A stretch of DNA of 64,000 nucleotides from Eledone cirrhosa. Taxonomy: Eukaryota. The stretch covers positions 38,440,001 through 38,504,000 of the forward strand of contig OZ024754.1 of NCBI GenBank assembly GCA_964016885.1. The letters are read 5' to 3'. The notes under the pieces are model-generated. The model searched no databases. It saw nothing but the letters and a program-made list of their open reading frames with translations, and was not told the DNA's origin. Both the position numbers and the translations under genes were made by a program. Positions 15,447 to 24,510 of this stretch are shown here, piece after piece. Numbering within the stretch: position 1 is the first letter of the stretch; each line of letters begins with the position of its first letter.

Positions 15447-16133
15447 TTTTTTATATTTTTATAATATATGATGGGATTTTTTGTGATGTTTTGTTTTTGT
15501 TAACATCTCTGTTACCACCAAGATGTTTCACTATCAATGCCAGGGCATATAAACAGCCATTGATTTGCTAAAATGTAGGGGGTTCTACTTCTATTTGTCG
15601 TAAAATATTTACACTGAATTTCATCAATAGCACACAGAATGATTTCTTTTTGTTTAATATTGTGGTTTTATATCGTCCTGTGAGAGAAATGTTTATACAT
15701 GAATTAATTTCTCTCTGGAAAGTTTTGCTGAGAGTATATTTCAGTTGTTTATATTCTTGATTTTACCAGCTAATGGCAGACATTATTTTTACCTTTTAGG
15801 GGGTTAATATGTTAATTTTTTTTTTTTTTTAAACCTTTTTGGGGGGGTTAATATTGTGTGAATCTCGGGAATTTTACCCGCCCTAGAAATATTGTGAAAA
15901 TATTTCAGTTGACATAGACCGTGAACAAGACATATCCAGCACTTGCTAGCAGGGAAAACAGATGATATATATATATATATATATATATATATATATATAT
16001 ATGTAAAGTTATATTTAAAATTGTTGGGTTACAACTAGTAAATATTTATAACTGATATAAAAGCACTCGACAAATATTTGGAGTATATTTACAATATTAA
16101 ATAAATGGAAAACTATATTTATAAAACCATATT

Positions 16134-16199
16134 TATTTCATTATATATATTTCGGGGATATCATATTAACAATATGCTATGCCTTCATCAGACAAAATA
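16134..16199 (-). ncRNA. Minimal type-I hammerhead ribozyme (left arm)
   Basis: Reverse complement of 16372-16437. Confidence 0.7.
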
Positions 16200-16371
16200 C
16201 AATATAAACAGTTTTATAGATAAATATATTCGACATACCGTAATAAACATCAACTTCATTTGAAGAGGTTTACTCTAGTAGAGTTTACTCTGCTAGAGTA
16301 AACCTCTTCAAATGAAGTTGATGTTTATTACGGTATGTCGAATATATTTATCTATAAAACTGTTTATATTG

Positions 16372-16437
16372 TATTTTGTCTGATGAAGGCATAGCATATT
16401 GTTAATATGATATCCCCGAAATATATATAATGAAATA
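16372..16437 (+). ncRNA. Minimal type-I hammerhead ribozyme (right arm)
   Basis: Stem I TATTTTGT/ATGAAATA (2 GU pairs), CTGATGA, stem II with CATATT/AATATG, GAA-A-TATATA-T-A; predicted cut after 16429. Confidence 0.7.
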
Positions 16438-16768
16438 AATATGGTTTTATAAATATAGTTTTCCATTTATTTAATATTGTATATATATATATATATATAT
16501 ATGTTCATATATATATGTTCATATATATATGAACATATATATATGTTCATATATATATGTATATATATGTTCATATATATATGTATATATATATGTTCAT
16601 ATATATATATATATGTTTATATATGTATATATATGTTCATATATATATGTATATATATATGTTCATATATATATATATGTTTATATATGTATATATATGT
16701 TCAAATATATATATATCTTGCAAGCAGGGAAAAGCGGACGTAAAATGATGATGATGATGTTGATGATC

Positions 16769-16961
16769 AGAAAGGGTGTGGTAAAATACCAGGTAGACCA
16801 TAACCCACCAGAGTACTCGATACTTGGGGTAGTAGAGTGGGTAATAGGAAAAGATTCAGGACCCCGACGGCTGAGCTCCGGCCGTTTCAACGGCTAGATC
16901 TGAACTCGGATCTACCTGTCAAAACAGCCGGAGCTCAGCCGTCGGGGTTCTGAATCTTTTC
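16769..16961 (-). mobile_element. Fold-back element family H
   Basis: GAAAAGATTCAGGACCCCGACGGCTGAGCTCCGGC.. and its reverse complement, plus an ~80-bp one-sided tail. Confidence 0.7.
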
Positions 16962-16971
16962 ATATATATAC

Positions 16972-17137
16972 ATCTCTCTCTCTCTCTCTCTCTCTCTCTC
17001 TCTCTCTCTCTCTCTCTCTCTCTCTCTCTCTCTCTCTCTCTCTCTCTCTCTCTCTCTCTCTCTCTCTCTCTTTCTCTCTCTCTCTCTCTCTCTCTCTCTC
17101 TCTCTCTTCTCTCTCTCTCTCTCTCTCTCTCTCTCTC
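16972..17137. repeat. (CT)n microsatellite
   Basis: Seen directly in sequence. Confidence 0.98.
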
Positions 17138-17692
17138 ATAAGGAAAAGCGAAGTAGTTTCAGATGTTCAAGTCCTTTAATAATAATTGTTTATACTTTAG
17201 GCACAAGGCCAGCAATTATCCAGTACATTACTGGTACTTTATTTTATCGACCCCGTAAGGATGAAAGGCAAAGTTAACCTCGGCGGGATTTGAACTCAGA
17301 CTGTAAAGGGACGTAACTATGCTGGAAAGCATGGCGTCCGACCCTCTACCGATACTGCCAAATGCTGTGATATATATTTCAATTGGTACTCACACGGGAA
17401 CGGATGTAGAACCCAAGAGCACACACTTCTTCCGTTCCCATGTCGATTCAATTTGGATTGCCTCGGCAACATAACCTTATTATGTAACAAGCTGTCTGAT
17501 GATGTCGCGTCACTGGCGCACAGAACAGTGTGGCCACTGTCGCCATTGAAATTTATATCACAGCATTATTATTAAAGGACTTGAACATCTGAAACTACTT
17601 CGCTTTTCCTTATTCGATATTTACTCCGTCACTCCTATGTGGAATAAGTACGTTGAGTGCTTGAATTGAATTACATCAATGTTTACCCTAAG
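17138..17692 (+). mobile_element. Hammerhead-containing fold-back element (~70-bp inverted arms, left arm split by SINE A at 17184-17361)
   Basis: ATAAGGAAAAGCGAAGTAGTTTCAGATGTTCAAGTCCTTTAATAATAAT..GCTGTGATATA is mirrored at 17546-17613; tail runs to (TA)n. Confidence 0.75.
17491..17564 (+). ncRNA. Minimal type-I hammerhead ribozyme
   Basis: Stem I GCTGT/ACAGC is perfect; CTGATGA; long GC-rich imperfect stem II; GAA-A-TTTATA-T-C; predicted cut after 17559. Confidence 0.75.
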
Positions 17693-22287: not shown

Positions 22288-23015
22288 ACAACAACATGAT
22301 ATGACTGGGGCCCCTATCATTAAAACATCTGAAAAACCACCTAGGAGGTCAGTTAAAACTGCATTGGTATGAGCTGTAAGAACAACATGATATGACTGGG
22401 GCCCCTATCATTAAAATAGCTGGGAAACCACCTAGGGGGCCAGCTAAAACGGCATTGGTATGAGCTGTAAGAACAACATGATATGACTGGGGCCCCTATC
22501 ATTAAAACATCTGAAAAACCACCTAGGGGGCCAGCTAAAACTGCATTGGTATGAGCTGTAAGAACAACATGATATGACTGGGGCCCCTATCATTAAAATA
22601 GCTGGGAAACCACCTAGGGGGCCAGCTAAAACTGCATTGGTATGAGCTGTAAGAACAACATGATATGACTGGGGCCCCTATCATTAAAATAGCTGGGAAA
22701 CCACCTAGGGGGCCAGCTAAAACTGCATTGGTATGAGCTGTAAGAACAACATGATATGACTGGGGCCCCTATCATTAAAATAGCTGGGAAACCACCTAGG
22801 GGGCCAGCTAAAACTGCATTGGTATGAGCTGTAAGAACAACATGATATGACTGGGGCCCCTATCATTAAAATAGCTGGGAAACCACCTAGGAGGCCAGCT
22901 AAAACTGCATTGGTATGAGCTGTAAGAACAACATGATATGACTGGGGCCCCTATCATTAAAATAGCTGGGAAACCACCTAGGGGGCCAGCTAAAACTGCA
23001 TTGGTATGAGCTGTA
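22288..23015. repeat. 91-bp tandem repeat, ~8 copies
   Basis: AACAACATGATATGACTGGGGCCCCTATCATT.. recurs at 22381, 22472, 22563 and onward. Confidence 0.95.
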
Positions 23016-23167
23016 ATAATGTTATGGAAGAATATCTTTAAGTTATATGCTAAATACAGGCATGATAATATAGTTAGTTATTTGACTAAATTTCTGTTGA
23101 TTGTTTGTAAAATTAATTGAAAAAACATTGGTGTTGTATTTCATTAGAAATATGGTAATGAAAGAGG

Positions 23168-23382
23168 ATTTAAATTGGCTGTATCCAGCCAGAATCCCCT
23201 CACCTTTTTCTGTTCAAACCAGCTGTAACTGGCCACTCATACTGATTTTAAGGTAGTGTTCTCAAAATAAATAATATCAAAATCTCATAGATTCAGTATC
23301 GAGTGAGATAATTATGTAAGGTAAAGCTTTTACCATGAAAATATAACAGTAATATAGAGTAATATAAATGCTAAAGGGTTAA
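23168..23382 (+). mobile_element. MITE family A (left end missing)
   Basis: Family A body plus TAAATGCTAAAGGGTTAA. Confidence 0.8.
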
Positions 23383-23859
23383 GGCGTAACCCCTGGTTGA
23401 CCAATTTCCATTATAATTTCTTTTATTACGATAATATTCAATCACTTTCATAATTCCCTTGATATTAATGTTTATTGAAAGTTATCTCTGTACCGCCATT
23501 AGTCATCATCTAGGTGTTTAAACAAGTGGTTGTTTAGATAACTGCATTAATATTAGTTTTTTATCACCAAGGTTTGTATACCAGTAGGGTGAAGATTATT
23601 TTGTCATGGGTGGGTGGATGCCCCAGATATTTAGCAGCATGTTACTGCAATAGCAGTGTAAAAACAACTAATTACTGATGGAGTTCTCTGTTAATAGATA
23701 TTGTATATTTCAGGAAAACACACATCAAATAGAAGACTGTTTTTCAAATTCTTTGTGCTCAGCAATGCATTTCTTTCATACTGTTTAGTTGCCAACTCGA
23801 TGTTGTTATGGTTATCGGAATAGAAAAATAATACTATTTATAATAATAATAATCATGAT

Positions 23860-24074
23860 AATAATGGCTTCTTATAAAGGCACAAGGCCAGCAATTTTGG
23901 GGGCGGGGAAAGTCAATTAAAATCGACCCAAGTGCATGTCTGGTACTTTATTTTATCGACCTGTAAGGATGAAAGGCAAAGCTAACCTCAGCGGGACTCA
24001 AACTCAGAATGTAAAGGGCCACCACTTTATGCTGCAAAGCATGGTGTCTGACACTCTACCGATACTGCCAATCC
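23860..24074 (-). mobile_element. SINE family A
   Basis: Matches family A consensus. Confidence 0.82.
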
Positions 24075-24333
24075 ATCGCCCTAATAATAATTATTTCTAC
24101 TTTAGGCACAAGGCCAGCAATTACCCAGTGCAATAATAATAATAATAATAATTTCTAACTTTTGTACAACACCTCAAATTTCTAAAGAAGTACAATTGAT
24201 TAAATTGATCTCAGTATATAACAGGTACTTTTTCACTCCTTCTACAAACCTAACCCATTATTAATTATTGCCCTTCCTTTAGAACTCTTTTATAAAAGAA
24301 GGACTAAACTAATTCCAGAGTTCCTTTCAATAT

Positions 24334-24390
24334 GGTTCAACTGATGAACTGGCAGTCGTAGATCCTTCTAGTGAAACATGTGTATTCGGA
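24334..24390 (+). ncRNA. Hammerhead-like motif with weak stem I
   Basis: CTGATGA-ACTGGCAG..CTTCTAGT-GAA-A-CATGTG-T-A; stem I pairs poorly. Confidence 0.5.
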
Positions 24391-24510
24391 TAATGTATTG
24401 TTGATGCAATAAAATATCTTATATATATATAATACAACACGCCACTCAGATTGAGTGCTCTACCTATATTTTACGAAATTCAACTACACTATATATATAT
24501 ATATATATAT

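Follow-up and report, generated by a model that had tools for sequence, protein, structure and literature searches.

Hydra-clade Penelope-like elements at (TA)n repeats of Eledone cirrhosa, with two insertion ends probably set by a duplicated conserved hairpin

Penelope-like elements are the closest relatives of telomerase reverse transcriptase (TERT), and how their insertions come to be tandem, inverted and tailed has been posed as an open question (PMC8557442). In that work, the Hydra clade of these elements is diagnosed by an RWK motif, the replacement of DKG by DKT, a CxCx5C linker, CxxC and CxH motifs and the lack of CCHH, and its supplement lists Hydra-1_Obim of Octopus bimaculoides with a hammerhead ribozyme and a (TA)n target. 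A tail at one end only is likewise known there in qualitative terms. For a Poseidon element, both target strands are cut and extended, reverse transcription begins at two positions inside the RNA, which delimit the tail, and ribozyme cleavage is dispensable in vitro (PMC11167929), while circularisation has already been proposed as a role for the hammerhead (PMC4209133). Here, we describe hammerhead-bearing repeats in a 64,000-nucleotide stretch of the Eledone cirrhosa genome (assembly GCA_964016885.1, contig OZ024754.1, positions 38,440,001 to 38,504,000, forward strand), referred to below as the window and numbered from its first letter.

A preliminary description of the window had flagged positions 16003-24490 as a cluster of five hammerhead motifs and had inferred at least four unrelated, short, non-coding families mobilised in trans. 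To judge by sequence comparison, these motifs are instead the clipped ends of Hydra-clade Penelope-like elements that are common throughout the genome. They belong to four families, here called A to D, of which A and C are the 3' ends of coding elements, D is old and B lacks an open reading frame (ORF). We give a probability of about 0.72 to the reading that four Hydra-clade families occupy (TA)n and that two alternative insertion ends are set by a duplicated, conserved hairpin lying beside the start of reverse transcription. The earlier recognition that the hammerheads are of Penelope type, lie at (TA)n and occur in inverted copies truncated at the 5' end holds, and microsatellites do adjoin all four insertions.

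The 3' ends of families A, B and C are bimodal: a short class and a long class are separated by 75-90 nt, and each class ends 3-8 nt 5' of one copy of the hairpin. Hairpin 1 lies within the tail and hairpin 2 opens the next unit, so that it is never present in a terminal copy; because of this position, the template would extend past the long end. Two-ended inverted insertions pair a long with a short end in 76 of 78 cases, with two long-long and no short-short combinations. In a recount that excluded the window copies and the loci from end-biased queries (the first queries for B and C favoured particular ends), 41 of 42 two-ended insertions use one site per end (p ~ 1e-11 against independent choice). 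This near-strict rule was not found in the published literature, searched as text with figures outside the search. None of the 5' truncations at 17 A, 47 C and 57 B junctions falls within 2 nt of the predicted hammerhead cut, and ribozyme-cut RNA as a linear template was rejected for this reason; the templates would thus cross the cut, being either uncut or re-ligated. A pile-up of B junctions at +5 was traced to the insertion site of a short interspersed element (SINE) rather than to the ribozyme cut (19 of the 21 rows listed).

The hairpin has the form RCTC-(upper stem)-TN-GAGYGCT (GAGYRCT in its broader form), with a 2-nt bulge, and is present at both end sites of A, B and C. Its reach beyond Eledone was followed in 77 metagenomic loci encoding relatives 32-38% identical; 39 of them extended 150 nt or more ahead of the ORF start and, after dereplication, yielded 31 leaders. 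At least one copy occurs in 30 of these 31 distant Hydra-like leaders and two copies in 21. The controls gave a copy in 1 of 310 windows taken from ORFs and in 31 of 6200 shuffled sequences, and two copies in no case. The same hairpin is present in the published consensus sequences of Hydra-1_Ajap (both copies), Hydra-2_Amil and Hydra-2_Ajap. A downstream end was sought at 21 of the metagenomic loci: three gave poor alignments, six continued beyond the contig edge and one proved to be a complete tandem, and of the 11 3' ends that could be scored, 10 lie within 5 nt of a hairpin start. TA is found at positions -9 to -4 of 45 of 47 hairpins and in 14 of 47 control windows further upstream, after 4 of 51 strict hairpin matches had been dropped as overlapping or doubtful. 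The two hairpins likely mark two start places of reverse transcription. No match of any kind was returned by Rfam at E<=0.1 in 10 loci with hammerheads and hairpins, the words 'hairpin' and 'stem-loop' are absent from the main text of PMC8557442, and no prior description was found in a text search of the literature, to which figures, most subscription journals and Repbase/Dfam were external.

Both hairpin copies are no more than ~170 nt from the start codon, and the stretch from ribozyme to start codon is the 5' leader of the ORF. The hairpins might then serve translation or transcription, with the ends set only by the neighbouring UA runs, one of which precedes nearly every hairpin. We regard this as quite improbable: family B retains both hairpins and both ends without an ORF, and the AT-rich leaders hold many other UA runs that are unused as ends.

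The chief rival to a start signal in RNA is a reading of the twin motif as DNA, in which the GIY-YIG endonuclease domain would recognise the motif in a longer complementary DNA (cDNA), cut a few bases upstream and trim the two ends differently. PMC8557442 attributes the tail to endonuclease-mediated resolution, the tail of the D. virilis element is required for endonuclease recognition as recounted in PMC11167929, and the lower stem and 3' tail of the motif are conserved in primary sequence. The upper stem behaves otherwise. The leader descriptor requires pairing, and 53 instances were rescored with anchoring on sequence only; in these, Watson-Crick pairing at the three positions of the upper stem is seen in 49, 36 and 29 of 53 as against 27.9, 15.5 and 13.1 in shuffles, and all four pair types occur at the second and third pairs. 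We read this as covariation of the upper stem, and such exchange of pair types beyond a 2-nt bulge suggests that the motif is folded as a single strand. In vitro, moreover, the Poseidon tail is the interval between two start sites of reverse transcription (PMC11167929). Recognition as DNA is, on balance, unlikely, and a start signal in RNA remains our preferred reading.

Family A is a very young, active and autonomous coding element. Its unit measures 4011 bp, and one locus (L121) carries the whole of it, in the order inverted 3' end, ORF, 1.56-kb AT-rich 3' untranslated region (UTR), hammerhead and end on (TA)n. A 191-nt query returned 572 candidates, the best 40 of which were scored and all match at 100%; in the protein search, the best 82 of 55,240 candidates were scored, all of them 96-100% identical. 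An uninterrupted frame of 737-740 amino acids is present in 25 of 30 fetched ORF loci, and in 27 of 30 the element's own 3' end stands ahead of the ORF, always joined at the same place, three of these 27 being a single tandem array of period 4011. That array, at C7:78453494-78463084 (L141-L143 and L224), holds at least three intact units head to tail with a period of 4011 bp; it is a candidate source locus in which both hairpins stand downstream of a full ORF.

The protein of family A carries RWR at residue 37, DKT at 118, YRDD, CNCRDRSKC at 596 (CxCx5C), CDLC at 694 (CxxC) and CKH at 721 (CxH), lacks CCHH, and has a C-terminal GIY-YIG domain with the motifs IVY..YVG..R..H. No Pfam family matched it. 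Its predicted structure has a mean local-confidence score (pLDDT) of 89.8, with TERT as the top four fold matches, and Argonauta hians is the only named eukaryotic source of homologues found. Family A is placed in the Hydra clade because the motifs of its reverse transcriptase (RT) and GIY-YIG ORF match the diagnostics given in PMC8557442; the assignment of A and C rests on shared motifs judged by eye, which point to Hydra-clade Penelope-like elements in both cases.

Family C forms an element of 3613 bp, of which the window holds the 3' end. Extended upstream, it runs into endonuclease sequence in 15 of 30 loci, and at one locus (L218) a near-full ORF with one frameshift stands between two repeats; its frames show RW, DKT, CxCx5C, CxxC and CxH, and the protein is 51% identical to that of A. 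This relatedness, together with a downstream hairpin motif common to all four families, contradicts the earlier view of unrelated families. Family D appears to be a decayed relative. The window copy is 69-89% identical to other copies, and CTGANGA is kept in 15 of 30 rows of the alignment, in which two loci are represented twice and one row is misaligned. Three of 30 loci (L104, L094 and L110) show decayed endonuclease sequence upstream in the same orientation, as Hydra-profile matches with no intact ORF. A D-like match beside a Neptune-type ORF (L223) was set aside as incidental, the 3' UTR of that element reaching a separate (TA)n end.

Four unrelated, retrozyme-like non-coding elements, all mobilised in trans, would suit the window taken by itself, where the copies of all four families lack ORFs, and short copies are far commoner than long ones among the DNA matches. 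The non-coding reading is true of B. For A and C it is refuted by the full or near-full loci L121 and L218; their 5' boundaries are scattered, their longer copies continue unbroken into RT and endonuclease ORFs, and no tandem array of short units exists among the window copies. As an account of all four families it is very improbable. The absence of ORFs noted earlier thus describes the window copies, whereas longer copies of A, C and D continue into RT/GIY-YIG coding sequence (decayed in D), as the preliminary description had itself suggested looking for. As to its suggestion that the families might be uncatalogued, the Hydra clade is catalogued, and these families are absent from the Hydra entries compared.

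Family B appears to be the one non-autonomous family among the four, with the insertion structure of a Penelope-like element. Its unit of 1.3-1.4 kb occurs mostly as partial tandems and inversions and has a fixed 5' end; in 25 of 30 loci this end is joined head to tail to the family's own 3' end. No Hydra-profile match lies in the unit and its longest stop-free frame is 100 codons, yet it keeps the same terminal signals as the coding families, namely both hairpins and both ends. Identity is 95.9-96.0% within one B insertion and 93.4% between loci, which is consistent with a single template or with later homogenisation. One insertion (L032:1017-3119) bears a sign of template switching or of a mixed tandem template. 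Separately, a SINE-like family with an (ATT)n 3' end has repeatedly inserted at one ATTATTATT site of B that lies 5 nt beyond the predicted cut of the hammerhead. Insertion at this site accounts for 19 of the 21 rows listed, and is seen in the window copy at 17187-17361 and in loci L034, L037, L041, L046, L157, L158, L162-L164, L168, L170, L175, L177, L179 and L184.

A fuller proposal, which we hold at even odds, is that a previously undescribed, duplicated hairpin of the Hydra clade is the start signal of reverse transcription and that two reverse transcriptase sites on one RNA prime opposite strands of (TA)n through UA pairing. This would explain the tail, its restriction to one end and the inversion, and would set an active family and an ORF-less parasite amid ~270,000 motifs. 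The element's protein would nick both (TA)n strands, and each nicked end would anneal to the UA run located 5' of a hairpin at a distance of 4-9 nt, in a manner resembling the primer alignment of telomerase. Each hairpin would position one reverse transcriptase active site, two of them working on the same RNA molecule. The resulting cDNAs, facing outward and terminated early, would then be joined head to head, giving the asymmetric inversions seen in the window. The template would be either a tandem transcript produced by read-through or an RNA circle sealed at the hammerhead, and full-length copies with a long end would require one of the two. For family B, mobilisation would occur in trans, through a Hydra protein that recognises these hairpins.

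Several observations weigh against the main reading. The exact end positions are blurred by TA microhomology. The 53 rescored hairpins are related to one another and come paired per element, so the shuffle overstates their independence. The lower stem is almost invariant (its first pair is G-C in 46 of 53), which means that part of the signal lies in primary sequence and could be read as DNA, and minimum-free-energy folds of whole leaders give both hairpins only for A. An autonomous partner of family B was not found, no ORF being joined to its terminal repeat in 60 loci fetched from the best 40 candidates per search, and the link of family D to an ORF is limited to the 3 decayed loci among 30. 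At L032, the upstream and downstream terminal repeats of B differ and the inverted arm matches the downstream one at 99.3%, a pattern that speaks against a pure template of single monomer circles. Finally, the Poseidon starts lie in one AC-rich stem-loop and show no strand difference in vitro (PMC11167929), so the strict use of one site per end is not explained by that system.

Within the window, the five motifs are all present as first reported, and they resolve into four insertions. The first two motifs form the two arms of a single inverted repeat (201 bp, 99% identical) in the family A insertion (16003-16487), a two-ended inverted and 5'-truncated copy between (TA)n runs with its long end on the left and its short end on the right. 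The left-arm hammerhead lies at 16134-16199 (minus strand; core 16185-16191, predicted cut after 16142) and its reverse complement in the right arm at 16372-16437 (plus; core from 16380, predicted cut after 16429). Hairpin 1 of this copy (16062-16084, minus), with an ACTC/GAGT lower stem and 2-nt bulge, is found in the long arm only and starts a few bases past the point at which the short arm ends.

The family B insertion (17138-17692) is a two-ended inverted fragment of the 1.4-kb ORF-less unit. Its short arm comprises 17138-17186 and 17361-17383 on the minus strand, interrupted by the SINE-like repeat with an (ATT)n 3' end (17187-17361, minus), which is foreign to the Penelope-like element, and its long arm runs from about 17384 to 17692 on the plus strand. 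The hammerhead of B (17491-17564, plus; core from 17496, predicted cut after 17559) has a long stem II, and hairpin 1 follows at 17623-17661 (plus). In the family C insertion (19118-19371), a sense arm with a short end (about 19118-19265, minus) is joined to an inverted long tail (about 19274-19371); the hammerhead (19151-19219, minus; core 19206-19212, predicted cut after 19158) lies in the former and hairpin 1 (19289-19316, plus) in the latter. Family D is represented by an old 3' end with a long tail (about 24230-24489, plus), carrying a hammerhead at 24334-24390 (plus; core from 24341, predicted cut after 24384) and the 3' half of hairpin 1 at 24449-24459 (plus). Asymmetric two-ended inversions are thus three in number (A, B and C), where two asymmetric inverted repeats had been counted.

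The flagged region also contains three unflagged family ends without a full core, called E, F and G. Remnant F (16777-16948) is an inverted 3' end truncated within the hammerhead, of which the GAAA half is left, with hairpin 1 at 16812-16838 (minus). Remnant G (18598-18814) is an inverted 3' end of a hammerhead-bearing family, truncated downstream of the ribozyme core, and remnant E (19036-19099, plus) comes from a family whose hammerhead has four pairs in stem III and is a 3' end cut off within the CTGATGA core. More E and F remnants lie outside the flagged region at 24973-25066, 50508-50614, 51364-51647, 59263-59401 and 60646-60848; several of these are inverted pairs with hairpin 1.

The five folds are type-I hammerheads (CTGATGA...GAAA) with CUGANGA and GAAA cores, three stems and a UH cut site, the closure of stem II being imperfect in family A. 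Their stem III octamers agree with those first reported; in B, one change breaks the palindrome of the window copy, and 69 of 75 clustered B motifs read ATATATAT. Might they be chance folds in AT-rich, palindromic DNA? Rfam hammerhead models, whose use had been proposed as a check, match none of the five folds, neither in the window at the gathering threshold nor in the flagged region at E<=10, and only B and C come near the hammerhead fold at minimum free energy. The excess over shuffled DNA is nonetheless clear. A strict descriptor, which misses the B motif with its broken palindrome, matches three times in the window and never in 200 local dinucleotide shuffles, and a second descriptor, which misses the D motif with its decayed stem I, has 4 matches in 16003-24490 against a mean of 0.016 (maximum 1) in 500 shuffles. 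All 30 A copies compared, 25 of 29 B copies and 27 of 29 C copies keep an intact core, and the position of the hammerhead agrees with that of published Hydra hammerheads (PMC8557442), which leaves chance with next to no probability.

The flagged cluster is ordinary for this genome. In a background sample of 37 ten-kb stretches at round coordinates on 20 contigs, with two window-flanking stretches left out, 34 motifs occur in 369.8 kb (~1 per 11 kb), whereas 20 shuffles give 0-2. With the same descriptor, this corresponds to 5.9 motifs per 64 kb against 4 in the window, and four or more motifs fall in 2 of the 37 background stretches (4 and 5). Extrapolation gives ~2.7e5 hammerhead motifs per 3.0-Gb genome (1.8-3.8e5 by Poisson error alone), which exceeds the published figures of 120,000 for axolotl and more than 6000 for Acropora. 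The motifs of the fetched loci form 43 sequence clusters, a few of them probably false. Locally, each insertion would leave fresh (TA)n flanks as a target for the next, which would account for the grouping of insertions in the window.

Other repeats were also noted. A second very young Penelope-like family, called Neptune-type from its CxxC linker and CCHH-like residues in comparison with published descriptions, is represented by L223:2829-3917 and by L341-L365, where a 784-amino-acid frame is open; most of its best 150 scored endonuclease matches are 100% identical. It ends on (TA)n after a ~1.2-kb microsatellite-rich 3' UTR, in which, across 25 loci taken as a control for specificity, neither the hairpin nor a CTGANGA core was found, and the four loci inspected have one end type. 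In the window, transfer RNA (tRNA)-like Rfam matches without an acceptor stem (20868-20925 and 42977-43033) are probably the heads of a tRNA-derived SINE, and a decayed repeat with an RT-like 3' part and a (GAT)n end, present twice (17758-18550 and 24511-24900), is probably the end of a long interspersed element. The window further contains a 5.8-kb (AT)n-based array with strong G skew (36444-42262) and four homogeneous minisatellites, at 22264-23016 (91-bp period), 25779-27004 (115 bp), 29125-30471 (45 bp) and 53462-55244 (49 bp), in which the second descriptor has no hammerhead match.

The twin hairpin is a short, clade-wide and mutable candidate cis-signal with sharp predictions, and family A offers many identical intact ORFs for an in vitro system. 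If the proposal is true, a portable start signal consisting of a hairpin plus UA would define what non-autonomous cargo such as B needs.

Among described systems, the Hydra clade is the closest to families A and C, with which it shares a single RT and GIY-YIG ORF, a 3' hammerhead, a (TA)n target, partial tandems, inverted 5'-truncated copies and a one-ended tail (PMC8557442). The elements of Eledone differ in size, A measuring 4011 and C 3613 bp where published Hydra elements are, as a tendency, generally below 3 kb, and the excess is the long AT-rich 3' UTR. Their tails of 75-90 nt compare with 30-40 nt in published Hydra, and their hammerhead sequences, with long stems II, differ from all Hydra entries compared. 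Naiad elements, with an N-terminal GIY-YIG domain and no canonical hammerhead, are unlike those described here, in which the endonuclease is C-terminal and a hammerhead is present.

Family B resembles the non-long-terminal-repeat retrozymes (PMC7229834; bioRxiv 10.64898/2026.07.22.740005) and Chlamys-type non-autonomous elements, MRC1 among them, in being non-coding, with a type-I hammerhead and a fixed junction, and like these retrozymes it would need a Penelope-like reverse transcriptase in trans. Unlike retrozymes, whose metazoan circles measure ~170-400 nt, it has a unit of 1.3-1.4 kb, is dispersed and ends in Hydra-type termini. Retrozymes are tandem non-coding units of a few hundred nucleotides, each with its own hammerhead; A and C are coding, and B is larger and mostly in partial tandems. 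With the minimal and small-helix-III hammerheads of Penelope-like elements (PMC4209133), the motifs share a palindromic helix III fit for dimer cleavage and a location in terminal repeats. In the inverted window copies, the motifs lie on opposite strands, and one transcript would hold one putative ribozyme paired to its own antisense.

The mechanistic parallel is Poseidon PAc of Anolis (PMC11167929), in which two internal starts of reverse transcription downstream of the hammerhead bound the tail, an AT-rich target is cut on both strands and ends do not pile up at the ribozyme cut. It belongs to another clade, and its starts lie inside the ORF in a single AC-rich stem-loop, whereas the putative starts described here lie in the leader, each with a hairpin copy of its own.

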